A DNA stretch of 64,000 nucleotides from an uncultured Spirochaetota bacterium (GCA_963783575.1 CAWAOD010000009.1:352001-416000); one strand, 5' to 3'. Shown: positions 7,382 through 51,944, counted from the stretch's first letter. Numbers and translations: made by a program. Notes: a model not told the origin generated them from the letters alone.

Positions 7382-9072
7382 CAGACTGTGTGAAAACACA
7401 GTAAATATGCTATAATTATTAGAACAAAAATAATCGGAGTAAAAGATGAAGCATATTGAGGGAGAATCAAGGGATCAGATAGTTCTGTTCAATGAAACAC
7501 TGGAAGATCTGTTAGGAGAAGAAGATCCGGTAAGGTTTATAGATATTTTTGTTGATAAGCTAAATATGAAAGGAGTTGGTTTTAAAGTAAAAGAAGCATC
7601 AACCGGCAGAAGTTCATATAAATCCGAAATACTTTTAAAAATCTATATTTACGGATATTTGAATAAAATCAGGACAAGCAGGAAATTAGAGAGAGAGTGC
7701 CGAAGAAACACAGAGTTGATGTGGCTGACTGGACGACTAGCGCCGGATTTCAAGACGATTGCCGACTTCAGGAAAGATAATAAGAAGGGAATACAGTCGA
7801 TATTCAGAGAATTTTTGAAGATATGTCATAAAGCCGGGCTTTTATCATTTGACGTTGTTGGAATTGATGGAACCAAGATCAGTGCGCAAAACCACAATAA
7901 CAATGTTTATCATAGGAAAAACATAGAAGAAATCATACATAGAATAGATCAAAAGATCGAAGAATATTTGAATGAGATGGATAAGAACGATAAGGAAGAA
8001 AAGAATGAATTTGAATTTCTTTCCGGAAAGATAGCGGAACGTTTAAAGAAAATGAAAACAAAAAAGGATAAAGTTGAGGCTATTAAAAAGATTTTTGAGG
8101 GAAATCCTGAAATGGAGAAATATTATTCAAATGACCCGGAAAGCCGGTTTATGAATGATAAAGGGAAATCCGACATTGCATATAATCTGCAGATGGCAGT
8201 AGATGATGCGAATAAACTGATTGTGGTGATTGATGTGACGAATGAAAACAATGATATCAAACAGATGGCAGGAATGTGTGACCGAGTAGAAGAAATAAAG
8301 GACGAGCTTAAGGTAGAGACTGAAACGGTCAAAGTATCGGATGCCGGTTATTACAGCGAACCGCAGATACTGGAATGTATAGATAAGGGACATAACGTAT
8401 ATATGCCGAATCCGGATGACGGACATAAGGCAAGGATTCGAGGCAAAGAAGATAATAAAGGAGTACCTGCTGAAGAATACCAGGTTGATAAATTCAAATA
8501 TGATCCGGGACAAAATGTTTATTATTGTCCGGAGGGAAACCCATTAGTGAGAAATGGGAAAAAAGTAGAGAAGGTCAATGGAGGAAAAGAGATAGTCAGG
8601 TACAAGTGCGGCTTATGCAGCCAATGTGAAGTAAGAAATAAGTGTACTGAAAGCGTGGAAGGACGAAGTATCAAAGTACCAGTTAGAAAAGAAGAAATTG
8701 AGAACTTCAAGAGGAAAATTCGTTCTGAAGCCGGGAAAAAGATCATAGAGAAAAGGAAAGAGATATGTGAACATCCATTTGGATCGATAAAAAGGAATAT
8801 GGGTTACAGTTATTTTTTAATGAAGGGAAAGGATGGCGTTCTGACGGAATCCAGTTTGGCAGGATTCATTCATAATTTAATAAAAGTATTGAATATATTG
8901 GGAATAAAGAGACTTATGACTCTGGTTTGATGCTAATAAACCATCGTTTATCGTATTCGGATAGATTTTTGAAACTAAGATTTTTTTAGCTTGAAAAATA
9001 TATCAAAAAATGGAGTTTTTGTATAATTAATCGATTTTACTATAAAATTTTACTGAGTTTTCACACAGTCTG
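7382..9072 (+). mobile_element. IS1182-family element A, copy 1
   Basis: Perfect 16-bp terminal IRs (cagactgtgtgaaaac / gttttcacacagtctg); flanked by a 3-bp ATG direct repeat. Confidence 0.93.
7446..8930 (+). CDS. IS1182-family DDE transposase
   Basis: YGY...SRKLE...MWL...PDFKTIADFRK, IDGTK, DAGY and EHPFGSIK motifs. Confidence 0.93.
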   Translation: MKHIEGESRDQIVLFNETLEDLLGEEDPVRFIDIFVDKLNMKGVGFKVKEASTGRSSYKSEILLKIYIYGYLNKIRTSRKLERECRRNTELMWLTGRLAPDFKTIADFRKDNKKGIQSIFREFLKICHKAGLLSFDVVGIDGTKISAQNHNNNVYHRKNIEEIIHRIDQKIEEYLNEMDKNDKEEKNEFEFLSGKIAERLKKMKTKKDKVEAIKKIFEGNPEMEKYYSNDPESRFMNDKGKSDIAYNLQMAVDDANKLIVVIDVTNENNDIKQMAGMCDRVEEIKDELKVETETVKVSDAGYYSEPQILECIDKGHNVYMPNPDDGHKARIRGKEDNKGVPAEEYQVDKFKYDPGQNVYYCPEGNPLVRNGKKVEKVNGGKEIVRYKCGLCSQCEVRNKCTESVEGRSIKVPVRKEEIENFKRKIRSEAGKKIIEKRKEICEHPFGSIKRNMGYSYFLMKGKDGVLTESSLAGFIHNLIKVLNILGIKRLMTLV

Positions 9073-9091
9073 ATGTGTAGGGGCACGCTTG

Positions 9092-16687: not shown

Positions 16688-18378
16688 CAGACTGTGTGAA
16701 AACACAGTAAATATGCTATAATTATTAGAACAAAAATAATCGGAGTAAAAGATGAAGCATATTGAGGGAGAATCAAGGGATCAGATAGTTCTGTTCAATG
16801 AAACACTGGAAGATCTGTTAGGAGAAGAAGATCCGGTAAGGTTTATAGATATTTTTGTTGATAAGCTAAATATGAAAGGAGTTGGTTTTAAAGTAAAAGA
16901 AGCATCAACCGGCAGAAGTTCATATAAATCCGAAATACTTTTAAAAATCTATATTTACGGATATTTGAATAAAATCAGGACAAGCAGGAAATTAGAGAGA
17001 GAGTGCCGAAGAAACACAGAGTTGATGTGGCTGACTGGACGACTAGCGCCGGATTTCAAGACGATTGCCGACTTCAGGAAAGATAATAAGAAGGGAATAC
17101 AGTCGATATTCAGAGAATTTTTGAAGATATGTCATAAAGCCGGGCTTTTATCATTTGACGTTGTTGGAATTGATGGAACCAAGATCAGTGCGCAAAACCA
17201 CAATAACAATGTTTATCATAGGAAAAACATAGAAGAAATCATACATAGAATAGATCAAAAGATCGAAGAATATTTGAATGAGATGGATAAGAACGATAAG
17301 GAAGAAAAGAATGAATTTGAATTTCTTTCCGGAAAGATAGCGGAACGTTTAAAGAAAATGAAAACAAAAAAGGATAAAGTTGAGGCTATTAAAAAGATTT
17401 TTGAGGGAAATCCTGAAATGGAGAAATATTATTCAAATGACCCGGAAAGCCGGTTTATGAATGATAAAGGGAAATCCGACATTGCATATAATCTGCAGAT
17501 GGCAGTAGATGATGCGAATAAACTGATTGTGGTGATTGATGTGACGAATGAAAACAATGATATCAAACAGATGGCAGGAATGTGTGACCGAGTAGAAGAA
17601 ATAAAGGACGAGCTTAAGGTAGAGACTGAAACGGTCAAAGTATCGGATGCCGGTTATTACAGCGAACCGCAGATACTGGAATGTATAGATAAGGGACATA
17701 ACGTATATATGCCGAATCCGGATGACGGACATAAGGCAAGGATTCGAGGCAAAGAAGATAATAAAGGAGTACCTGCTGAAGAATACCAGGTTGATAAATT
17801 CAAATATGATCCGGGACAAAATGTTTATTATTGTCCGGAGGGAAACCCATTAGTGAGAAATGGGAAAAAAGTAGAGAAGGTCAATGGAGGAAAAGAGATA
17901 GTCAGGTACAAGTGCGGCTTATGCAGCCAATGTGAAGTAAGAAATAAGTGTACTGAAAGCGTGGAAGGACGAAGTATCAAAGTACCAGTTAGAAAAGAAG
18001 AAATTGAGAACTTCAAGAGGAAAATTCGTTCTGAAGCCGGGAAAAAGATCATAGAGAAAAGGAAAGAGATATGTGAACATCCATTTGGATCGATAAAAAG
18101 GAATATGGGTTACAGTTATTTTTTAATGAAGGGAAAGGATGGCGTTCTGACGGAATCCAGTTTGGCAGGATTCATTCATAATTTAATAAAAGTATTGAAT
18201 ATATTGGGAATAAAGAGACTTATGACTCTGGTTTGATGCTAATAAACCATCGTTTATCGTATTCGGATAGATTTTTTAAACTAAGATTTTTTTAGCTTGA
18301 AAAATATATCAAAAAATGGAGTCTTTGTATAATTAATCGATTTTACTATAAAATTTTACTGAGTTTTCACACAGTCTG
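16688..18378 (+). mobile_element. IS1182-family element A, copy 2
   Basis: Same 16-bp IRs as copy 1; transposase protein identical. Confidence 0.93.
16752..18236 (+). CDS. IS1182-family DDE transposase
   Basis: Identical protein to 7446..8930. Confidence 0.93.
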   Translation: MKHIEGESRDQIVLFNETLEDLLGEEDPVRFIDIFVDKLNMKGVGFKVKEASTGRSSYKSEILLKIYIYGYLNKIRTSRKLERECRRNTELMWLTGRLAPDFKTIADFRKDNKKGIQSIFREFLKICHKAGLLSFDVVGIDGTKISAQNHNNNVYHRKNIEEIIHRIDQKIEEYLNEMDKNDKEEKNEFEFLSGKIAERLKKMKTKKDKVEAIKKIFEGNPEMEKYYSNDPESRFMNDKGKSDIAYNLQMAVDDANKLIVVIDVTNENNDIKQMAGMCDRVEEIKDELKVETETVKVSDAGYYSEPQILECIDKGHNVYMPNPDDGHKARIRGKEDNKGVPAEEYQVDKFKYDPGQNVYYCPEGNPLVRNGKKVEKVNGGKEIVRYKCGLCSQCEVRNKCTESVEGRSIKVPVRKEEIENFKRKIRSEAGKKIIEKRKEICEHPFGSIKRNMGYSYFLMKGKDGVLTESSLAGFIHNLIKVLNILGIKRLMTLV

Positions 18379-18383
18379 CAGGC

Positions 18384-30132: not shown

Positions 30133-30234
30133 AAAAATATTTATGTCCGTTGACCGGCAGAATATTTTTTTATAATATTACTAAGTTTTTTAATAAGTTC
30201 GTATTTTACAAGTATTTTGAAGTAATATATGAAG

Positions 30235-30292
30235 TGCGCATATCACTCCGAAATTAGAGTAATATACGCAATGCGTATATATCGAGTTGTAC
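30235..30292 (+). other. attI-like first recombination junction
   Basis: GTTGTAC at 30286-92 with no matching R'' upstream; preceded by the palindrome atatacgca-a-tgcgtatat (30262-80). Confidence 0.55.
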
Positions 30293-30331
30293 GAAAGAAA
30301 TGCCCAGTAAGTTTATTTTTTGGAGAGTGTT

Positions 30332-31759: not shown

Positions 31760-31983
31760 GTACAACATGGCGTACACGTTCCGCTCCGTCCTCACTAGCG
31801 TTCCGGGCGGTGCTCAGGCTTCGCCACATTTCGCTTTGGCACGGATTTTTGCCTGAAATTTATTAAAGAGGGAATATGATGTTTAATAATGACTGTATTT
31901 ATAGAAAAACTTTACGGCAAAGTGGCAAAAACACGTGCCAACCCTGACGGGCCGCGAAACGTCGTGTACGCCTGCCGTTATAT
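31760..31983 (+). other. attC-like site 1 (224 bp)
   Basis: R'' GTACAAC, R' GTTATAT; ggcgtacacg / cgtgtacgcc and ttggcacg..tttttgcc / ggcaaaaa.cacgtgccaa arms; AT-rich loop. Confidence 0.85.
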
Positions 31984-32036
31984 GCAATGCCTTAAATTTT
32001 CTTGTTTTATAAATATTAGTATAATAGGAGGTTAAA

Positions 32037-32531
32037 ATGAATCCTAATGTTAATTTGACATTATTTTCTAAGGATAGTTATCGCTCGACCCGACAAGGGA
32101 AAATGGTGCTTAATTTTAGTGCGCTCCAAATATTTCCCTTATTGTGCCCAGTAGAAGAGTATAAATGGTTCCCAGGCTGGGAATGTATAATGGTATATTC
32201 CAAAACAGGGATTGCAGAGAAAGATGCCGTCTTTTTAACCAAAGAAAAGGACGGTTCTAATATTGTCTGGACAGTTATCACATATGATCCACCCAATTTA
32301 ATTGAATTTAGTATCGTAAACGGTCTGAATTCCGTCGAGAGATTCAGTATTATTTTGACAGAGATATCTCATAAAAGTACTGAACTTGAATGGAAAATCA
32401 TGAATACATCTTATTCAAAAAATAGTATTGAACAAAACAAAAATCAAAATAATGAATCTTTTAATATTTTTTTAGAAGATAGAAAAAAGGAAATGGACTA
32501 CTATCTACGGACAGGGAAAATAATTCAATAA
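32037..32531 (+). CDS. Cassette 2: SRPBCC/START-like protein
   Basis: IFPLLCPVEEYKWFPGW motif; AGGAGG RBS. Confidence 0.75.
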   Translation: MNPNVNLTLFSKDSYRSTRQGKMVLNFSALQIFPLLCPVEEYKWFPGWECIMVYSKTGIAEKDAVFLTKEKDGSNIVWTVITYDPPNLIEFSIVNGLNSVERFSIILTEISHKSTELEWKIMNTSYSKNSIEQNKNQNNESFNIFLEDRKKEMDYYLRTGKIIQ

Positions 32532-32551
32532 TTATATTAATAAGGCACTGC

Positions 32552-32712
32552 GCACAACAGCAAGTCAGCGGTTGCGCTCGAGTACTCGCTCCACCCAAAT
32601 CGCCGGGCTGGTTGAAAGCAATTAAATATGTTAATTTTTATAAATGCTTTTTGATATAATATTTACAGCTTAATTAAATACCGGCGACTTCGCCGACTTG
32701 CACCCGTTGTAC
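32552..32712 (+). other. attC-like site 2 (161 bp)
   Basis: R'' GCACAAC, R' GTTGTAC; gcaagtcagcg / cgccgacttgc and tcgccgg / ccggcga arms. Confidence 0.85.
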
Positions 32713-32822
32713 GAAAATTTCCGGGCCGAAGCTGATGATATTACTTTTCCGGCGTCCTTGCCGGAAAAATGATTTATTATTTAAAATGTATTAGAATTTA
32801 TATCGATTAGTAGAGGTTTTAA

Positions 32823-34160
32823 ATGGCATTATTATCAGAAATTGAATCTGCACTAATGCTTGGAATTACAGTTGAATTATTAAATTCATATACAAAATAT
32901 TGTCCAAAATCTGGCGAAAATGTTAAATTAAAATATAAAATAGTAAAAGGTATAAAACATTTTGAAAAAGATGATATTCTATTTTATCATAAATATTTAA
33001 ACAGTCCGTGGCCTATGCCAAAAAAAGGAGAAAGACCATATATTCCTAAAGCAATCCAAGATTTTATAAAGTTTGAATCACATTATTCCTGTTCAATTTG
33101 CGGTCATATGGATAATGGTGAAATAGCACATATTGAAGCAGTTTCAACAACACTAAATAATAGTCCAGATAATCTTATTTATTTATGTCCAAATCATCAT
33201 ACAAAATATGATTATGGTTACAAACCTAATAGTAATGTTACATTAGAAGAAATTCGTGCTTCAAAACTTTTAAAAAGAAATGCTTTACAAAGAGTGATGA
33301 AATATGAGTCTAATACAGTTAAATTATTAAAAGTTACATTATTAAACATAAAATCAATCAGTGAAAAACTAGCCTTTGAAAGTGATAAAACAATGCTAGA
33401 GATTTATAATGTTGAATTACAAAACATTGTGAAGAATTTACCAGAATATATAGATAAAGCAAATGATGACGCAAAAAAAGATATAAGTTTAGTAAATGAA
33501 AAAGAACTATTATCTAAAAATGCACCAAATTTAATAAAATATTCAAATATAATAATAAAAGATTCTTCTTTGTTCAAAACATCCGTTGACTCAATAATCA
33601 AGATTTCTAACGAAATATTTATTGATTTAGATGAATATCCCTGTCCTCATTGTGGAGGAAGCGGACTAACAGGATTACTCGGTGATATATGTGTTTATTG
33701 TAAAGGTTCTTGTGTAGTCTCAAAGCAAATGGTTAATAGTTATGACTCTAATAAAATTGATGAAGTTGAATGTCCTCATTGTGGAGGAAGCGGACTAACA
33801 GGATTACTCGGTAATATATGTATTTATTGTAAAGGTTCTCGTAGAGTATCTCATAAAAAGTTTGATCAGTATGATCCAGATAAAATCGATGAAGTTGATT
33901 GCCCTCGTTGTGGGGGAAGCGGACTAACAGGATTACTCGGTGATATATGTACTTATTGTAAAGGTTCTCGTAGAGTATCTCATAAAAAGTTTGATGAGTA
34001 TGATCCCGATGAAACCAATGAAGTTGAATGTCCTCATTGTAGGGGAAGTGGTCTATCAGGATTAGTCGGTAATGTATGTAAATTATGTAAAGGTTCATGT
34101 GTTGTAACTAAGATAGTATATAAAGAATATATCAAGAAATATGGAACTATTGGCGATTAA
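32823..34160 (+). CDS. Cassette 3: HNH endonuclease with four DnaJ-like zinc-finger repeats
   Basis: CSICG...EIAHI...NLIYLCPNHH HNH motif; four CPxCxGSG...CxxCKGS repeats with 43-aa (129-bp) period. Confidence 0.85.
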   Translation: MALLSEIESALMLGITVELLNSYTKYCPKSGENVKLKYKIVKGIKHFEKDDILFYHKYLNSPWPMPKKGERPYIPKAIQDFIKFESHYSCSICGHMDNGEIAHIEAVSTTLNNSPDNLIYLCPNHHTKYDYGYKPNSNVTLEEIRASKLLKRNALQRVMKYESNTVKLLKVTLLNIKSISEKLAFESDKTMLEIYNVELQNIVKNLPEYIDKANDDAKKDISLVNEKELLSKNAPNLIKYSNIIIKDSSLFKTSVDSIIKISNEIFIDLDEYPCPHCGGSGLTGLLGDICVYCKGSCVVSKQMVNSYDSNKIDEVECPHCGGSGLTGLLGNICIYCKGSRRVSHKKFDQYDPDKIDEVDCPRCGGSGLTGLLGDICTYCKGSRRVSHKKFDEYDPDETNEVECPHCRGSGLSGLVGNVCKLCKGSCVVTKIVYKEYIKKYGTIGD

Positions 34161-34224
34161 AGCCTCCGCCGTCCTGGGCTCCGGCTTTTTGCTTAAACAT
34201 TCGGCCCGGAAAACATCGTACAAC

Positions 34225-35978
34225 GGCCTTGTAGAAAAAGTTAATTTCAGGTAATAATCCTCCATTCCCAAACAGTTTGTTTTTTTTGATCTGTCTGGAA
34301 TTACTTTATTTATATAAAACCGGGCTGAATTTACCGGCAAAGCTGCTTTTATTCCATCACTATGCCATTATATCCCTCCATAGACCTGAATTTTCCCGAT
34401 ATTGTGCACAGTATTATATAATACCCATTGAATATTCACTTTTCCCTTTCCCCTCAGCGTAAATCGATCCATACCTTTACATGCCCTTATATTCCCGAAT
34501 ACAGGCTCAACTATAGCCATTCTTTTCGCATAAAGCTTTCTGCCTTCAGGTGTATCTATGAACTTTCTCATTTCGTCCGAGTAATGTCTGTTATCCGCAT
34601 TTAACGGCCTTTTTGGCTATATAGTAGCTCTTATGGAACCTCCGTGTTCCCAAGGTTGTTTGATTTTATTTTAATTCTTCAGGAAGTCTTTCTGGAATGG
34701 ACAATTACGGCAGGCCGATAACCGGCACATATACTTCGCATATGTAATATGATTCACCGTATAGTTATATCTGAACCTGAGTTCCTCTCCTTTCTTGCAT
34801 ATATAAACATTATTTTCCGGATCATATTGAAAATCATCAATTGTATACTGCCCTTTCTTCGCAGGCTTATGTCTGTCAGCGGTTTCAAACCTGCAATCGC
34901 GCTTCCTGAAATTCGTATCCGGGATGACCGGTTTCATACCGTTTTGCGAAATATATTTCAGGTTCTTTTCGCTGAAATAATTGGTGTCCGCGGTGATTAT
35001 TTTATCCTTTAAATCTTTTCCCAATTCTACTTTTGCTTTACGGATCATCCCTTTCAGGAATTCCCCCTCAGACCCGCTCCCAAAAGCTTCGGGATATACC
35101 ACAACCTGATACTTCGAATCCACTACAGAAAGTCCGTTGTAGCCCTGGATAACACCATGTGAACTCTTTATTTTCGCACTCTCGTTGTCAGTGACATTGG
35201 ACTGCTTTTCACCATGCCGTGCCTTGTTTTTGGGTTTTTCACTTTCCAGAAACTTTTCTATCTTTTCAGCTTTCTTTAAAATCTTCTCGATCCGTGCCAG
35301 ATCTTTTTCCTTATCCTTCTCAGGAAAACCGCCGTCCTGATCACGCTTTTCATGTTCATCAAGCATTTCCTTAACCAGGTTTTCCAGCTTCTCTTTTTTC
35401 TTCTTCAAATCCTTAAATGTTCCGCTCCATTCCTTTGATGCATTTGACGATAGTTTGCACCCGTCCAGCGCGAACATATCCCCGCCTATGAGATTCAGTT
35501 CGTCACAAACCATCAATATATTCAGGAATACGGTATTTATCTCATTTTTCATCGAAGAAACAAAATCGGCGATTGAAGTAAAGTGCGGTATTGAATTGGC
35601 GGAAATGGCTTTGGCTATAATATTCGTTTTACACAAATATTCGATTTCACGTGATGTAAAAATACCGCGGGAATAGCTGTAGAGTATTATCTTCAGCATA
35701 ACCCGCGGATTATAGGCCGGGGCACCGGTAGCATCGTTCTTATACTTATTCTCAAAGATTTTAAGATCAATTCTGCTGTCAACAAGAAAACTGAGTGTAT
35801 ATTCAAATGTTCCCGGTATAATCTGCTCATCGAATGAGACAGGTATGAGTTCCATTTGATCGTAATTAACTTTCTTATGTCTTGCCATAATTGATTTCCC
35901 CTCTTGATTTTATTTACAATATATTTTAAAGTATAACCGTTATTTTGTACATGAATGACGGACTTTTTCTACAGGCTC
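34225..35978 (-). mobile_element. IS1182-family element B, full-length copy
   Basis: Imperfect 17-bp IRs (ggccttgtagaaaaagt / actttttctacaggctc); flanked by an AAC direct repeat. Confidence 0.88.
34368..35888 (-). pseudogene. IS1182-family transposase, frameshifted into 34671..35888 and 34368..34571
   Basis: GAPAYNP, LDGCKL, ADTNY motifs; C-terminal KRMAIVEPVFGNI lies in a different frame. Confidence 0.8.
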
Positions 35979-36399
35979 AACAACAGCTTAGCGTTCCGTT
36001 CCTCGGCGTTGCGACGCCTGCGGTACTCAGGGCTGCGCCCACATTTGCCTTTGACACAGTTTTTGCGTTATAATATTTGAAGGAAAGTTTTATGAGAAAT
36101 AATAAAATTTTACACTTTAAGGAAGCATTTACACAAAAAGGCAAAAACTGCGCCAATCGCTGACACGAACGTCAAACGTCGCCAAGCTATACCGTTATGT
36201 GCAATACTCGCGTTCGATTTAATAAATATTTATAGGGCGATTTAATTTTGCTTCTAAATTTTTTTTGATATAAAATAATACTTATAAATTTCAACTTTTT
36301 TTTGACTTTATTCTACTTTCTCATATAGAATATTTGACAGATTAAAATTAAAATATAATTATAAAAATAAGTTAATTGTAAAGTAAGGAGGATATTATT

Positions 36400-36819
36400 A
36401 TGATAAGTAAATCATTTTCAACAACAACTAAGAAGGTTTCAAAAGAGCAACTTTGGAAGCTTATGTCCCACATCAATGATTGGAAAAAGTGGGATAACAC
36501 AGTTGAATATTCTGAACTTCAAGGAGACTTTAAAACTGGATCAACATTTATTTTAAAACCTAAAGAAGGACCAAAAGTAAAAATAAAATTAATTGAAGTA
36601 AAACCAAATAATTATTTTAAAGACTGTACTATATTTCCTTTGGCTAAAATGTTTGGAGAACATTGGTATGAGGAAACGTCTGATGGCGTAAAAATTACTG
36701 TAACGATGACTATAAAAGGTATTCTGTCCTTTTTATGGTATAAAATAGTTATGAAGGAATTAGTTGAACATCTTCCGGAAGATGTAAAAAATCAAATTCA
36801 AGCTGCATATAAGTTATAA
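36400..36819 (+). CDS. Cassette 4 gene 1: SRPBCC/polyketide cyclase family protein
   Basis: LWKLMSHINDWKKW motif; AGGAGG RBS. Confidence 0.8.
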   Translation: MISKSFSTTTKKVSKEQLWKLMSHINDWKKWDNTVEYSELQGDFKTGSTFILKPKEGPKVKIKLIEVKPNNYFKDCTIFPLAKMFGEHWYEETSDGVKITVTMTIKGILSFLWYKIVMKELVEHLPEDVKNQIQAAYKL

Positions 36820-36873
36820 TTTATTTGCACTATAATTAGAGTAATCTAGAAGATTTATAAAAGAGGTATTAAT

Positions 36874-37305
36874 ATGAAATATTGGATTAATACAGTTTCA
36901 AAAGATCATGTTATGATTGGTAAAAAAAATGGAATAGTTCAAGCCAATCATGGAAAATTATCACCATTGAAACGATTAAAAGTTGGAGATCAAATAATTT
37001 ATTATTCGCCGAAAACCTCATTCGAAAATGGTGAACCTTTAAAAGCATTTACAGCAATTGCAGAAATAATCGATGAAAAAATATATCAAATAGAATTAAG
37101 TGATGACTTTAAACCATATAGAATAAATGCTAAATATTTGGATTGCAATGAAGTTAAAATTGAACCTCTGATAGAAAGTTTAAATTTTATTAAGAATAAA
37201 AAATCTTGGGGTTATATGTTTAGATTTGGATTATTTGAAATAACAAAACATGATTTTGATTTGATTTATTCGATGATGAAAAAACAACGCGAGTACAGCA
37301 CATAA
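36874..37305 (+). CDS. Cassette 4 gene 2: EVE domain protein
   Basis: YWINTVSKDHV...QANHGK...GDQIIYYSP...WGYMFRFGLFEI; stop codon lies within R'' ACATAAC (37300-06). Confidence 0.88.
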   Translation: MKYWINTVSKDHVMIGKKNGIVQANHGKLSPLKRLKVGDQIIYYSPKTSFENGEPLKAFTAIAEIIDEKIYQIELSDDFKPYRINAKYLDCNEVKIEPLIESLNFIKNKKSWGYMFRFGLFEITKHDFDLIYSMMKKQREYST

Positions 37306-37604
37306 CGGCCTTGTAGAAAAAGTTAATTTCAGGTAATAATCCTCCCTTTCCAAACAGCATGTTTTTTTTGATCTGTCCGGAATCACTTTTTTATATAAAA
37401 CCGGGCTGAATTTACCGGCAAAACTGCTTTTATTCCATCACTATGCCATTATATACCACCATATGGAAATGTCAAGAGTTTTTCCCATATCTGCGCTCGG
37501 GTAATTTCCCACCCCTTCCACAAGAGTATTTCCCATATGCTTCACAAGAGTTTTCCCCATACCTTCCACGTGAGTATTTCCCATAGTGAGGAGGCAAAGA
37601 ATGG

Positions 37605-38354
37605 TTACTCAACCTCCTTATTCAAATTTTGTATTCTGTAAGATTCTCCGCTCAAGTTATAAATATTTGAATGATGTAAAAGCCTATCCAGAAGAGCGGT
37701 TGTCATAATCGGGTCTCCCATCATTTCAGCCCAATCCTGAAATCCCTTATTCGATGTTATCACAATTGATGTCTTTTCATACAATTCACTTACAAGACTA
37801 AAGAATAGATTTGCCTCCTTCTTTTCGATAGGTGTGTAACCTATCTCATCAATGATTAATAAGTGTGACTTCATCATCCGGTTCAGCCTGAAAGCAGAGC
37901 TTCTCTGGATGTCCGCCGTTTTCAGAAACTTAATGAGAGTAGTCATCCTTTCAAAGCAGACAATATATCCCTTTTCAACTGCCCGGATTCCGATACTAAT
38001 TGCCAGATGCGTTTTCCCCAGCCCCGGAGACCCAAAGAACAACAGGTTATGATGATTATCAATCCAGCAGAAATCCAATAGCTGTGAAACATCCATTTTA
38101 GATATTCCATTCACTTTTTCAAAATTAAAACCTTCCACATCTTTGCGGACCGGGAAGTGTGCTCCTGCCATATTCCGCTGAAAACGTTTTTCCACTCTAT
38201 AATTCAATTCCAGAGAAAGCAGCCTCTGCAGAAAACTCAGATAAGACTCTTTTGCCTTTTCAGCCTCACCAATTTCCTCATCAATCCGTTTTATCATACC
38301 CTTCAACCCGAGAGTTGTAAGCGCAGTTATGATTTGTTCTCTTATCTTCAACAT
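37605..38354 (-). CDS. istB: IS21 helper ATPase IstB
   Basis: GSPGLGKTHLA, IIDEIGY and ALLDRLLHH motifs. Confidence 0.95.
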   Translation of the reverse strand: MLKIREQIITALTTLGLKGMIKRIDEEIGEAEKAKESYLSFLQRLLSLELNYRVEKRFQRNMAGAHFPVRKDVEGFNFEKVNGISKMDVSQLLDFCWIDNHHNLLFFGSPGLGKTHLAISIGIRAVEKGYIVCFERMTTLIKFLKTADIQRSSAFRLNRMMKSHLLIIDEIGYTPIEKKEANLFFSLVSELYEKTSIVITSNKGFQDWAEMMGDPIMTTALLDRLLHHSNIYNLSGESYRIQNLNKEVE

Positions 38355-39901
38355 TGCCGGCCCCCGATGGAGTCACAGAAACTCTGGTATTTCCCGATGT
38401 CTGATTTAGCTACTTCAAGATAGTGTTCAGGATTCACTGAAGGCCTGACAATCTTTTCAACATTCAAGGGTATTTCTGCCTTTTCTGTTATAAAACAGTT
38501 CAGGTAATTATCCCACAAATCCTTCATGGAATAACTATCACTCTCCAGGCAGTTTGAGATCGCTTGTGTAAGCTTCCCGGTATCAATTATCTTGTCCCTG
38601 AAGTATTTTCTTCCGGAAAGACATTGGTCCCTTACATAACGATTGAACTTCCTGAAATTACATTCAAGAAAATCCTTCCAGCCGGGAATATCAAAGTACC
38701 CGCTTACTTCTTCTTTCAATAACTGCACAGTCTTTCCCATTTCCCGGATCATTGACCTGTTGGTTACAATCTGCCCCGGAATCACTGAAAGCCGGTATTC
38801 GGCGATTTGCTCTCCCGTTATCCTGTCAAAGACAAAAAGCCGACTGCCCGTCTTGTAGATGTCCACCGAACCGTTCCTGTATTTTTCGGGAATATCATAC
38901 TGGCTTGCATCAACTGCGATCCGGCATTTATCGCTTACACTGCGCTCTTCCCTTGCTCCTATCCTGTCTTTACGGAATATCGAATTCCTGACAGATTGGA
39001 GATATGGTCTTTCCGTTTCAATCTCTATCAGTGGTATTTTCATTGTAGCCTGGGATATTCTCCCGTTGGCTTTTCTTTCCAGCCATTTCATCAGGCTTTC
39101 TTCCGCTTCCATTAAACTGTTGAACTCCCGGACTGAGAAGAAACCGTGCTTGATGAATTTGACTACGTTTTCAATCTTTCCCTTACTTTCCGGGTCAGCA
39201 GGTCGGCACACATACATTTTAAGACCCATTTCCCCGATGAAATACTGAAAGTCTTTCGTGTAGATGATATCGCCTGAGTTCTCACTCGCAACCATCGTGC
39301 AGTCCTGATCGATGACAAGTTCATGCGGTATCCCGCCCATATATGCGAAACAGTCCAACAGATGATTGATAAGGTCTTCTGTCCGGAATGGCCTCTCCTG
39401 GAGGGCCGCATACTTAAAACGACTGGCGGATAACACCGCGGCAAATATGTAATACCTTCTGCCATATCTGTCGGTATATTGACCGAAATCAAGCTGGAGC
39501 TGCTTTCCATATGGCATGTCAGGCACTTTTGTGTAATACCGTCGCTTTTCATTCAAGGTAAGCTGCCCGCTTTCAATCAGGTAATGTACGAAATTCCTCA
39601 TCGTATTTTCATTCGCCGGTAGTTTGCCTTTTACCTCCAATAAATAGTCATACAAAGCAGACATATTCAGCCGGATGTAATCATTCTTTTCATATACTTT
39701 CAATATGTCTGTTTTTATTCCTTCGAATTCTTTTTCACGGAAAGAGAATTCCATCAGGCTTTTCTGGTATTCGGAATCGTTCATAGCCCAATATTTTCGG
39801 ACTGTCTTAATATCTATTGACAGTTCCCGGGATACACCATTTTTACTTTTCCCCAAAAGTTTCAGTTTTTTTATGTCCTGATACATAATATTTTTCACCA
39901 T
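38348..39901 (-). CDS. istA: IS21 transposase IstA
   Basis: N-terminal HTH; QLDFG, IDQD and SKGKIENVV motifs. Confidence 0.95.
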   Translation of the reverse strand: MVKNIMYQDIKKLKLLGKSKNGVSRELSIDIKTVRKYWAMNDSEYQKSLMEFSFREKEFEGIKTDILKVYEKNDYIRLNMSALYDYLLEVKGKLPANENTMRNFVHYLIESGQLTLNEKRRYYTKVPDMPYGKQLQLDFGQYTDRYGRRYYIFAAVLSASRFKYAALQERPFRTEDLINHLLDCFAYMGGIPHELVIDQDCTMVASENSGDIIYTKDFQYFIGEMGLKMYVCRPADPESKGKIENVVKFIKHGFFSVREFNSLMEAEESLMKWLERKANGRISQATMKIPLIEIETERPYLQSVRNSIFRKDRIGAREERSVSDKCRIAVDASQYDIPEKYRNGSVDIYKTGSRLFVFDRITGEQIAEYRLSVIPGQIVTNRSMIREMGKTVQLLKEEVSGYFDIPGWKDFLECNFRKFNRYVRDQCLSGRKYFRDKIIDTGKLTQAISNCLESDSYSMKDLWDNYLNCFITEKAEIPLNVEKIVRPSVNPEHYLEVAKSDIGKYQSFCDSIGGRQC

Positions 39902-40171
39902 TCCTGCCTTCCTTTAATGAATTTTCATTAAAGGTAATCTTCAAGCCTCTCTATGGGAAATCTGTTTGTGACAGGTATGGGAATTTCATTTATTGCTACC
40001 CTGGTAAATTAGTTTATCATTTCCACCATAGACCTGAATTTTTCCTGTAAAGAACAAAGCCTGCTTATGTGCGCCCCGCAACATTAACGCCATTTCCGAT
40101 TGAGATGATGACAATTTGTTCGTTAGGAATATGGGCCAATTAGACGCTTACTGATTGTCAGTATAAAGATT

Positions 40172-42863: not shown

Positions 42864-43301
42864 ATGAAAAGGGAAATTAACGTATTAGGTGGGAGTGAAG
42901 TTTTAGACAACGGCCCCTTTTATCACGGGACGAAAGCGGATTTGCGGGTTGGCGATTTGTTGACTGCTGGGTTTCGGTCAAATTACAAACCCGAAGTCAT
43001 TATGAATCACATTTATTTTACAGCCTTGGCTAATGGGGCAGGACTTGCCGCAGCCTTGGCCAAAGGTGATGGACGTGAACGTGTATATATAGTTGAACCG
43101 ACGGGTAGCTTTGAAAATGACCCGAATGTTACGGACAAAAAATTTCCTGGTAATCCAACACGCTCATATCGCACTAAAGCGCCTTTGAAAATCGTCGGCG
43201 AATTAACAGATTGGGTGAGACCAACGCCTGAGGAACTTCAAAAATGGCGCGTAAAGTTGGCTGATATCAAAACGGATTCGAAAGCAGAAATTATTAATTA
43301 A
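42864..43301 (+). CDS. arr: NAD(+)-rifampin ADP-ribosyltransferase
   Basis: GPFYHGTKADL, HIYFTA and YIVEPTG.FENDPNVTDKKFPGNPTRSYR motifs. Confidence 0.95.
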   Translation: MKREINVLGGSEVLDNGPFYHGTKADLRVGDLLTAGFRSNYKPEVIMNHIYFTALANGAGLAAALAKGDGRERVYIVEPTGSFENDPNVTDKKFPGNPTRSYRTKAPLKIVGELTDWVRPTPEELQKWRVKLADIKTDSKAEIIN

Positions 43302-43394
43302 AAACATGGAAGAATTATAATGAATTCCTGGCGGCATCCTTGCCGGTAAAATAAGGAACCAGTTGTTCGTTATAAATTAATTGGAGGATTCATA

Positions 43395-44945
43395 ATGTTA
43401 GACTTATGGAGAAGATTCTGGATTATTCTTATTATTTTTTTCTGCTTCACGGTACCGGTTATAGCTAATGATACCAATGATTATTACCCCAGTACTACAT
43501 GGCGGACTTCAACTCCGGAAGCGCAGGGTATTGATTCGGGACATCTGGTCAGGATGCTGGATTATATACAATCGTATGATATAAATTTCCACAGTATTAT
43601 AATTATCCGTCATGGATATATTGTCATGGAAGCTTACGCAGAACCTTTCGGAAAGAACGTTATCCATACCCTTAATTCATGCACTAAAAGTGTCGTATCA
43701 TCTTTGATCGGTATTGCTTTAAGAGAAGGCTATATCAAAAGCATTGATCAAAGGGTCGTTGATATATTTTCCAATCAGAATATAAAAAATATGGATGATA
43801 ATAAACGGCAGATAACAATTGAACATCTGCTGACCATGAGTTCGGGAATCAACCAACCGGATGTAGATGGGCACCCCCCGGAAAATTATTTTAAAGCCTC
43901 CAAATGGAACCAATATTATCTTGATCTCCCAATGGCAACACAACCAGGTAAATTATTTGCTTATGATTCCTCAGGGGTAAACCTTCTTATGGCTATTTTA
44001 CAAAAAACCAGCGGTATGAAAAATTCGGATTTTGCCGATAAATTTCTTTTCAAGCCGATCGGTATTACCAATTATTATTGGCGGACTGATCCGCAGGGAG
44101 ATTATCTCGGAGGCTTTGGATTGGCTTTAACTCCAATGGATATGGCCAGGTTCGGTTATCTATATTTAAAAAAAGGAAATTGGAATGGAAAACAGATAAT
44201 ACCCGCCGATTGGGTTGAAATATCCATGTCCAACAATATTGATACATCAATGTGCCCTTTTGCGATTTCTACAAATAAAGGATACGGTTTCCTGTGGTGG
44301 GGGCTTCAGTTTGGTGGTTTTACAGCGATGGGCGCTGGTGGACAATTTATAATGGTCATGCCTGAAAATGATATGGTAGTTGTAGTTACCTCCGGTTTTC
44401 CCCCTCAAGATTTTCAAACACCATTAATTTATTTAGCTGAACAATTCACAAACCAATCCTATGTTTCCAGCAGCAGTCTCCCCGAAAATCCAGAAAAACA
44501 GGCGGAACTTGCGGCCGCCATCCGGAATTTTGGGAATCCAACAAATGATACAGATTTAGTTATTCCGGAAATGGCGAAAATAATTTCAGGGAAAAAATAT
44601 ATTCTTGATTCAAATCCGGGTAACTTAAAATCTATTATGGTGAATTTCAATGGTTCCAACGAATGTATTTTCGATGCAGAATATCCGGATAACCATTTTA
44701 AAATAATAATCGGATTGGACGGGAAATACCGTGAAAATAGATATGAAAATTTTTTATATTATAAGGAGTTCTGGCGTGGTAAATGGACAGGTGAAAATAC
44801 TTTTGTAGCAGAATATTACAGACCTTGTGTTGACGGTAGTAAAATTCAATTTACTTTTCAATTCGATCAGGATAAGCTCAAAATGGCACAAGAATCAACG
44901 GTTGGAGAATGGTGGCGGCATTTTACAGGAAAAATGGAACAATAA
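43395..44945 (+). CDS. Secreted serine hydrolase (beta-lactamase/NylB-like fold)
   Basis: Signal peptide; SCTK, LLTMSSG, FAYDS, DMARFG and GYGFLWW motifs. Confidence 0.88.
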   Translation: MLDLWRRFWIILIIFFCFTVPVIANDTNDYYPSTTWRTSTPEAQGIDSGHLVRMLDYIQSYDINFHSIIIIRHGYIVMEAYAEPFGKNVIHTLNSCTKSVVSSLIGIALREGYIKSIDQRVVDIFSNQNIKNMDDNKRQITIEHLLTMSSGINQPDVDGHPPENYFKASKWNQYYLDLPMATQPGKLFAYDSSGVNLLMAILQKTSGMKNSDFADKFLFKPIGITNYYWRTDPQGDYLGGFGLALTPMDMARFGYLYLKKGNWNGKQIIPADWVEISMSNNIDTSMCPFAISTNKGYGFLWWGLQFGGFTAMGAGGQFIMVMPENDMVVVVTSGFPPQDFQTPLIYLAEQFTNQSYVSSSSLPENPEKQAELAAAIRNFGNPTNDTDLVIPEMAKIISGKKYILDSNPGNLKSIMVNFNGSNECIFDAEYPDNHFKIIIGLDGKYRENRYENFLYYKEFWRGKWTGENTFVAEYYRPCVDGSKIQFTFQFDQDKLKMAQESTVGEWWRHFTGKMEQ

Positions 44946-50017: not shown

Positions 50018-50140
50018 TTATAAATCGCCGTCCTGGCTTTACTTTATGCGCCGATTTTCGACCGGGCCAACGTTTAATACGGTATAGCTGTTTTGCCCAG
50101 TCTCAATAGTGTTACGAGCTGTGCTCAGTCCTTTCGTCAG

Positions 50141-51830
50141 CAGACTGTGTGAAAACACAGTAAATATGCTATAATTATTAGAACAAAATAATCGGAGTAA
50201 AAGATGAAGCATATTGAGGGAGAATCAAGGGATCAGATAGTTCTGTTCAATGAAACACTGGAAGATCTGTTAGGAGAAGAAGATCCGGTAAGGTTTATAG
50301 ATATTTTTGTTGATAAGCTAAATATGAAAGGAGTTGGTTTTAAAGTAAAAGAAGCATCAACCGGCAGAAGTTCATATAAATCCGAAATACTTTTAAAAAT
50401 CTATATTTACGGATATTTGAATAAAATCAGGACAAGCAGGAAATTAGAGAGAGAGTGCCGAAGAAACACAGAGTTGATGTGGCTGACTGGACGACTAGCG
50501 CCGGATTTCAAGACGATTGCCGACTTCAGGAAAGATAATAAGAAGGGAATACAGTCGATATTCAGAGAATTTTTGAAGATATGTCATAAAGCCGGGCTTT
50601 TATCATTTGACGTTGTTGGAATTGATGGAACCAAGATCAGTGCGCAAAACCACAATAACAATGTTTATCATAGGAAAAACATAGAAGAAATCATACATAG
50701 AATAGATCAAAAGATCGAAGAATATTTGAATGAGATGGATAAGAACGATAAGGAAGAAAAGAATGAATTTGAATTTCTTTCCGGAAAGATAGCGGAACGT
50801 TTAAAGAAAATGAAAACAAAAAAGGATAAAGTTGAGGCTATTAAAAAGATTTTTGAGGGAAATCCTGAAATGGAGAAATATTATTCAAATGACCCGGAAA
50901 GCCGGTTTATGAATGATAAAGGGAAATCCGACATTGCATATAATCTGCAGATGGCAGTAGATGATGCGAATAAACTGATTGTGGTGATTGATGTGACGAA
51001 TGAAAACAATGATATCAAACAGATGGCAGGAATGTGTGACCGAGTAGAAGAAATAAAGGACGAGCTTAAGGTAGAGACTGAAACGGTCAAAGTATCGGAT
51101 GCCGGTTATTACAGCGAACCGCAGATACTGGAATGTATAGATAAGGGACATAACGTATATATGCCGAATCCGGATGACGGACATAAGGCAAGGATTCGAG
51201 GCAAAGAAGATAATAAAGGAGTACCTGCTGAAGAATACCAGGTTGATAAATTCAAATATGATCCGGGACAAAATGTTTATTATTGTCCGGAGGGAAACCC
51301 ATTAGTGAGAAATGGGAAAAAAGTAGAGAAGGTCAATGGAGGAAAAGAGATAGTCAGGTACAAGTGCGGCTTATGCAGCCAATGTGAAGTAAAAAATAAG
51401 TGTACTGAAAGCGTGGAAGGACGAAGTATCAAAGTACCAGTTAGAAAAGAAGAAATTGAGAACTTCAAGAGGAAAATTCGTTCTGAAGCCGGGAAAAAGA
51501 TCATAGAGAAAAGGAAAGAGATATGTGAACATCCATTTGGATCGATAAAAAGGAATATGGGTTACAGTTATTTTTTAATGAAGGGAAAGGATGGCGTTCT
51601 GACGGAATCCAGTTTGGCAGGATTCATTCATAATTTAATAAAAGTATTGAATATATTGGGAATAAAGAGACTTATGACTCTGGTTTGATGCTAATAAACC
51701 ATCGTTTATCGTATTCGGATAGATTTTTTAAACTAAGATTTTTTTAGCTTGAAAAATATATCAAAAAATGGAGTTTTTGTATAATTAATCGATTTTACTA
51801 TAAAATTTTACTGAGTTTTCACACAGTCTG
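50141..51830 (+). mobile_element. IS1182-family element A, copy 3
   Basis: Same 16-bp IRs; flanked by a 3-bp CAG direct repeat. Confidence 0.93.
50204..51688 (+). CDS. IS1182-family DDE transposase
   Basis: Differs from copies 1 and 2 by one residue (EVRNK vs EVKNK). Confidence 0.93.
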   Translation: MKHIEGESRDQIVLFNETLEDLLGEEDPVRFIDIFVDKLNMKGVGFKVKEASTGRSSYKSEILLKIYIYGYLNKIRTSRKLERECRRNTELMWLTGRLAPDFKTIADFRKDNKKGIQSIFREFLKICHKAGLLSFDVVGIDGTKISAQNHNNNVYHRKNIEEIIHRIDQKIEEYLNEMDKNDKEEKNEFEFLSGKIAERLKKMKTKKDKVEAIKKIFEGNPEMEKYYSNDPESRFMNDKGKSDIAYNLQMAVDDANKLIVVIDVTNENNDIKQMAGMCDRVEEIKDELKVETETVKVSDAGYYSEPQILECIDKGHNVYMPNPDDGHKARIRGKEDNKGVPAEEYQVDKFKYDPGQNVYYCPEGNPLVRNGKKVEKVNGGKEIVRYKCGLCSQCEVKNKCTESVEGRSIKVPVRKEEIENFKRKIRSEAGKKIIEKRKEICEHPFGSIKRNMGYSYFLMKGKDGVLTESSLAGFIHNLIKVLNILGIKRLMTLV

Positions 51831-51944
51831 CAGGCTCAGGGTACAGGGATCACCTCACAAAATAGATCATTTCGTAAGTTGATCCATATAGAAACTTTAA
51901 GGTCAACCAAAAATTAAAATTTTCAACTTTTTTATCTTACTTTC

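Follow-up and report, generated by a model that had tools for sequence, protein, structure and literature searches.

What brings an insertion sequence to the same base of an attC site twice within one cassette array? The locus lies in a 64,000-nucleotide stretch of DNA from an uncultured Spirochaetota bacterium, referred to here as the window. An earlier note on this DNA placed one IS end, GGCCTTGTAGAAAAAGT, directly behind two attC R'' boxes and proposed an attC-specific DDE transposon that inactivates the sites it enters. The coordinates given there were correct: the end follows GTACAAC, starting at 34225, and again follows ACATAAC, starting at 37307, both times in one orientation. The two copies were also said to differ, and they do, by 9 substitutions and 1 gap over 158 aligned nt.

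The complete copy is an IS1182-family element of 1754 bp (34225..35978, minus strand) whose transposase is antisense to the cassettes. It terminates in imperfect 17-bp inverted repeats (GGCCTTGTAGAAAAAGT and GAGCCTGTAGAAAAAGT) and is bordered by AAC on both sides. The transposase gene (34671..35888, minus strand) is cut to 405 amino acids by a foreign segment (about 34600-34670) which is related to a dispersed genomic repeat and replaces part of the gene, leaving a 3' remnant at 34377-34589. Pfam domains DUF772, DDE_Tnp_1 and DDE_Tnp_1_6 were found in the window protein. The stop after codon 405 is common to the window copy and four other full copies, one further copy is frameshifted, and only one of the seven full copies (C16, 494 aa) encodes an intact transposase. 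This intact sibling reaches 278.6 bits against NF033551, the IS1182 model, passing the cut-off of 270. Residues D142, D301 and E449 are invariant across 105 transposase homologues and are candidates for the DDE catalytic triad; a search for a solved structure related by sequence to the transposase found none.

The window protein matches IS1182 only and the element's repeats are terminal, unlike the DEDD enzyme and sub-terminal repeats of the IS1111-attC group, which also uses a seekRNA. A domain search found no RT domain in the element, as a group IIC-attC intron would carry. Outward promoter matches within the window IS numbered 10 vs 6.8 ± 2.7 in shuffles, and the promoter/terminator scan did not rise above chance. 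Of the second copy, a right-end remnant of 157 nt is left (37307..37463, minus strand), with about 17 nt more at 40026. It was split by an IS21-family element (istA and istB; 37464..40025, minus strand; 5-bp CCATA repeat) and then deleted shortly past it. Miniature elements of 109 bp that share the ends of the full element and lie in attC sites between AAC triplets were found at G000:C16:118829-118937 and L138:12112-12220.

The surrounding array has co-oriented cassettes on the plus strand, with starts that complement their own R'' boxes, behind an attI-like head (30232..30296; crossover GTT at 30286). No integrase gene adjoins this head, which is 92% identical over 65 nt to C5:458192-458256, a segment directly downstream of an integrase-like gene. 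Two IS-free sites follow, an attC at 31760..31983 (R'' GTACAAC at 31760, R' GTT at 31977, paired arms) and attC1 at 32552..32712 (R'' GCACAAC at 32552, R' GTT at 32706). A two-cassette unit (31975..34224) starts at an attC crossover and is duplicated at C5:472317-474566 with 99.96% identity over 2250 nt. A cassette gene at 32823..34160 encodes 445 aa with an HNH domain and CxxCxGxG zinc-finger repeats (Pfam HNH_2 and DnaJ_CXXCXGXG). This cassette ends in the native R'' box GTACAAC (34218..34224), which is complementary to the cassette start GTTGTACG at 32706 and whose AAC is the left target repeat.

Behind the element, sequence and fold indicate an IS-built R'' box (35975..35981) composed of GCTC from the IS end and the duplicated AAC. 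The attC body is kept downstream of the IS (35979..36200; R' GTT at 36194), and its bottom-strand fold pairs AAC with GTT as well as the L arms. The AAC and GTT triplets close this bottom-strand hairpin, which has L boxes and a spacer left unpaired. The next cassette (36400..37305; start GTTATGTG, end CACATAAC) contains two genes, one polyketide-cyclase/lipid-transport-like (PF10604) and one for an EVE-domain protein (PF01878), and is followed by the second R'' box, ACATAAC (37300..37306), called from its sequence.

Several further features of these arrays were recorded. In many host cassettes the start and end are complementary over ~25 nt, beyond the 7-nt R boxes (e.g. 32704-32730 / 34200-34226). 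Copies of the attI-like head open several arrays with no integrase gene nearby, namely the window array (30232-30296) and those on G000 C4 (about 7090), C16 (about 120156) and C13 (218537). Further along the window, 42864-44945 carries a rifampin ADP-ribosyltransferase-like gene (Arr-ms) and then a beta-lactamase-fold serine hydrolase with paralogues on C14 and C15.

The main array of the host is headed, in the cassette direction, by the integrase-like gene at C5:457130-458180 (L001), which is frameshifted as assembled; this layout is known from Treponema integrons (PMC3607928). A 202-aa piece of the product scores 155.7 on TIGR02249, where the cut-off is 265. The recombinase is extended at its N terminus and by score lies nearer to NF040815 than to TIGR02249. 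Open homologues (62%) number four in genome G011 (e.g. L159:1405-2460). The C5 recombinase is possibly a non-canonical integron integrase for long (150-250 nt) attC sites. Recombination by an integrase has indirect support from the duplicated unit, in the window and at C5:472317-474566, which starts at an attC crossover.

Cassette-side ends of the element were compiled genome-wide (n=24, including four from related subfamilies and one 109-bp miniature copy), the tabulation of flanks that the earlier note had proposed as its check. AAC precedes 23 of the 24 ends (22 as YAAC) and the remaining one follows TAC, while AAC follows all nine far ends found in the genome; AAC makes up 1.5% of strand positions. 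A clear matching GTT cassette start, behind an attC or attI, was identified for 12 of the 24 occupied ends. As controls, two other IS1182 families had 0/65 and 0/12 ends at AAC/GTT and IS21 left ends had 0/13, so that the three control families together gave 0/90. One of the control IS1182 families has about 32 copies in the genome, three of them in the window (7382-9075, 16688-18380 and 50140-51831), never at AAC/GTT. The element was absent from the genome's R' GTTs and from all five attI-like heads. The identification of an IS1182-family DDE element with attC specificity stands, and attC targeting by this DDE transposon is real, strong and lineage-wide.

Occupied sites are common in this genome. 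A profile search found 18 paired attC sites, 13 of them IS-free, or roughly 15–17 free sites when profile misses are counted. With about 24 occupied ends, the element is or was present at more than half of all cassette ends. Along the main array, ten free attC sites come first and four occupied ones follow. At two attC sites, G000:C10:80074 and C12:24368, the R'' AAC reads ATC, and both are without the element. Seven cassette junctions (L152 = G000:C13:203466-214000; G000:C12:23373 and 25011) consist of R''-AAC, ~55 bp of the IS right end and a common G-rich segment, and most end in attI-like sequence ahead of the next cassette. No attC hairpin was seen in the four hybrid junctions that were folded, and the G-rich segment of this repeated separator was not found in five other genomes. 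Several of the IS21 copies on G000 C4, C5, C9 and C13 lie within sequence of the attC-like or hybrid-junction type, at positions that vary.

We then considered what insertion does to the site. Excising the window IS together with one AAC restores an attC, as the earlier note had proposed, in whose bottom-strand fold AAC pairs with GTT at 36194. The same note's claim that insertion inactivates a site, and thereby locks or fuses cassettes, was not supported: insertion duplicates the AAC and GCTC comes from the IS end, so that an R'' box (GCTCAAC) and the complete hairpin are still present downstream. The fold energy at the window site is -34.9 with either the native or the IS-built box. Outer R''/R' pairing comprises 1–2 of 4 nt at IS-built sites and 0–4 (median 2) at IS-free sites. 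Among relatives, the IS end and triplet together form YYYAAC at 48 of 54 ends. A strict fold test detected an attC-like hairpin at 22/52 AAC-class sites, 4/31 others and 5/150 random AAC positions; the test is conservative, failing 30 of the 52 AAC-class sites including three of six from this genome, and was used because two home-made stem scores did not discriminate (one left 37/55 unresolved).

Sequence conservation in attC is limited to the AAC and GTT triplets (PMC2727003), and attC recombination is described as tolerant even within the cleavage triplet (PMC2811028). With a rebuilt box, an unchanged fold and conservation of the triplets only, the attC is most likely preserved and the IS carried as cassette cargo; an IS-built site would then most likely still recombine. 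That AAC, spacer, L boxes and R' are all kept, that fold and energy at the window site are unchanged and that outer pairing resembles IS-free sites weigh against the rival that accepts targeting and has each insertion inactivate its attC, locking or fusing cassettes, even though R''-L'' is essential for recombination (PMC2727003), the far end is lost at 15 of the 24 occupied sites (kept at only nine), so that many became dead, and a different IS1182 element of G011, which enters 4 nt further along and makes a 4-bp repeat, would part R'' from the attC body. We consider this rival unlikely. Inactivation is probably the wrong reading of the insertion itself, and loss of function is a secondary event that follows where copies later decayed by deletion (e.g. 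37307). The GAG-type IS end also occurs in a clade of relatives that does not target attC, so the rebuilding of the box may be luck, from a fit possibly already present, rather than adaptation.

The element is not confined to this host. Matches were found in 11 of 401 genomes of the phylum, in Gracilibacter and Atribacterota records, in Pseudoalteromonas and Catenovulum replicons and at one locus in viral contigs; the closest named transposase record is from an uncultured Spirochaetota (88%). From metagenomes we sampled the best 80 of 574 loci, with both ends present in 62, one end in 15 and none in 3. The 62 two-ended loci of this sample divide evenly into 31 at AAC/GTT and 31 at other sequence. 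L133, 10 duplicate proteins and seven loci whose ORFs fell short of 400 aa were excluded from the trees. The non-attC elements group together in a single clade of 41 rows (SH-aLRT 99) and have the same ends as the attC type; three loci with AAC repeats sit inside it, which we read as chance, having labelled them non-attC after the first tree was seen. Outside this clade, 28 of 29 two-ended loci are at AAC/GTT. A rooted quick tree nests the non-attC clade within the attC elements, but the data do not reject a single clade of attC elements (AU p 0.37). Compared column by column, the attC and non-attC transposases revealed no extra domain (median 516 vs 506 aa) and no clear determinant.

The non-attC class also helps to define the duplication. 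A matching 3-bp repeat of varied sequence is present at 17 of the 31 loci of the 'other' class, which fixes the IS boundary and identifies AAC as a target duplication. The 3-bp repeat is corroborated by the 109-bp miniature copy, by empty sites and by the non-attC clade. A blind inverted-repeat search was right about the ends at only around half of the 23 loci it covered.

Many relatives insert directly after the R' GTT instead, while the window lineage uses R''. R' insertion is clear in genomes G331 and G379, whose invaded arrays also contain identical attC sites that are empty, and likewise in the Catenovulum and P. piscicida records. Both orientations of the transposase relative to the cassettes occur among lineages. 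Calling R'' or R' from gene direction at 63 loci gave 25 R'', 20 R', 2 conflicting and 16 undetermined, a noisy measure that miscalls L045 and the off-target L022, and our assignment relies on the clear arrays rather than on these calls.

Genome G011 also carries a second IS1182 element (L142:5073-6751; two further sites in L140) of 1679 bp and 488 aa that is 23% identical to the window element and passes NF033551. It inserts 4 nt past the R'' AAC, with a 4-bp repeat at the two sites where both ends are present and the same offset at a third end. At that position it would cut R'' off from the attC body. It may represent an independent attC-targeting lineage.

How is the site recognised? We infer that the transposase itself reads it, by sequence, with or without help from the hairpin. 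An 18-nt motif suffices for site choice within this host: at the weakest leave-one-out score it selects 56 of the 149,300 AAC sites in the genome and gives mirror R' sites lower scores, a partly circular result since the motif was trained on related attC sites. A partly extruded hairpin with its R boxes still duplex would explain the use of either end, a speculation that fits the taste of the IS1182 family for stem-loops (PMC5678879). Two of the eight G011 insertions argue against a strict need for structure or integrase: one lies inside an ORF and not in an attC, the other just ahead of an older IS end that has decayed; neither adjoins a hairpin, and both score poorly on the target motif.

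The transposase could alternatively be recruited through protein contact with an attC-bound integrase rather than reading DNA itself, as has been proposed for IS1202 elements and XerC (PMC10132070), and the use of both R boxes, which are integrase-binding sites, across lineages would suit such a route. Against it, the cut falls inside a box that a bound integrase would presumably cover, and none of the five attI-like heads carries the element. The hosts' integrases are moreover very different, a canonical IntI adjoining the invaded array in G379 and those of G000 and G176 falling below the TIGR02249 cut-off. The off-target insertion in an ORF also speaks against recruitment, as does the ability of the 18-nt motif alone, with the circularity noted above, to separate R'' from its mirror R'. 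We regard recruitment as quite unlikely and favour direct recognition by the transposase.

The two window junctions do not derive from one duplication, the outcome that would have undone the earlier note's reading of independent events, as they lie at different cassettes and their ends are 94% identical. The left junction at 34225 has a more complex history. It is common to C5:474567, and the IS follows both copies of the duplicated unit. The window IS equals C5:474567 exactly over its first 322 nt, and its far end is closer to C5:477313 (after nt 1308, 2 vs 18 differences). Different attC bodies stand behind the window IS and C5:474567. This mosaic, with its duplicated left flank, points to one insertion followed by duplication and recombination between IS copies, perhaps by RecA-type exchange. 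Recombination between IS3 copies in a V. cholerae array has been shown experimentally (PMC11023631). No cassette, IS and attC unit was found at two array positions, and thus no such sign of integrase-driven movement; in one sequencing run (7% of words) no joint across the IS was seen, which is uninformative.

Elsewhere the insertions are clearly separate. All eight G011 matches are AAC-flanked, and six identical copies occupy six different sites. In three cases homologous cassette ends in different genomes carry different IS types at the same base. Empty homologous sites have a single AAC, and in two G011 homologues of the window cassette end an attC follows immediately on one AAC. Although the window junction and C5:474567 descend from one event, the idea that there is no targeting, and that one old insertion spread as cassette cargo or by duplication or that random insertions were purged by selection, is largely refuted and very improbable, given 23 distinct upstream flanks in one genome, the six identical copies at six G011 sites, the different IS types at homologous ends, the many other places occupied by the same genome's other IS families and an attC trait that tracks the transposase tree.

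The explanation we consider likely overall is an IS1182 subgroup whose DDE transposase selects the attC R-box triplet and whose insertion rebuilds the site. In this model, a single DDE transposase of a widespread subgroup would select integron attC sites and make a 3-bp staggered cut on the invariant R-box triplet, which in the window lineage is the AAC of R'', the transposase lying antisense to the cassettes. Duplication of the triplet next to the GCTC of the IS end produces a consensus-like R'' box and a whole hairpin behind the element. The attC would probably still be recombinable, with the IS as cargo at the cassette 3' end. Since all copies lie at the same base, homologous recombination between two of them can delete or swap cassettes and leave one proper site.

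These observations have several consequences. With about 24 occupied vs roughly 15–17 free attC sites, elements of this kind can rank among the chief forces that remodel arrays and give rise to integrase-less ones. If insertion preserves the site, annotators should not score such an attC as dead. Target choice by a one-protein transposase is directly testable, and close relatives differing only in target (R'', R' or non-attC) are suited to domain swaps. We give roughly even chances to a wider proposal, in which a broad undescribed IS1182 subgroup acts as a 'polite' integron parasite that homes on either R-box triplet across phyla, rebuilds a working site, rides cassettes between genomes and seeds identically placed homology that shuffles cassettes without an integrase, with a second lineage, 23% identical, having reached the target separately.

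Our literature search found no attC-targeting IS1182 element; subscription papers lay mostly outside it, and ISfinder or TnPedia entries might carry such a target. PMC9137128 contains both terms, IS1182 and attC, which are unrelated there. Named IS1182 elements in plasmid records (ISPa22-like, ISBusp4, ISPse1) are only 25–27% identical to the window element. The attC-seeking elements that the search found in papers, IS1111-attC and group II introns, use RNA guidance, and here a plain DDE transposase appears precise to a single base.

The closest parallels differ from the window element in instructive ways. In common with the IS1111-attC group (ISPa21, ISPst6, ISKpn4), it enters attC at one set position close to the 5' end and lies antisense to the cassettes (PMC3001079, PMC11187229). 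Members of that group are described as using a DEDD enzyme and a seekRNA (PMC11187229), whereas the window element is a DDE IS1182 with true terminal repeats and a 3-bp duplication, whose relatives use either R box. Group IIC-attC introns such as S.ma.I2 are likewise antisense to the cassettes and part a gene from its attC, entering the attC bottom strand (PMC3001079); unlike the window IS, they are RNA retroelements without duplication or inverted repeats. The ISAjo2 group of the IS1202 family, the pdif/dif hunters, also combines a single DDE transposase with a tyrosine-recombinase site, a fixed distance and orientation, and a short duplication (PMC10132070). IS1202 is a different family, which inserts 5 bp outside the XerC box, while the window element enters the attC R box and rebuilds it. 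Finally, IS1272 and TnSha1 belong to the IS1182 family itself, and IS1272 targets stem-loops (PMC5678879). IS1272 replaces the stem-loop, with no duplication and no sequence preference, whereas the window element keeps the hairpin and duplicates 3 bp.
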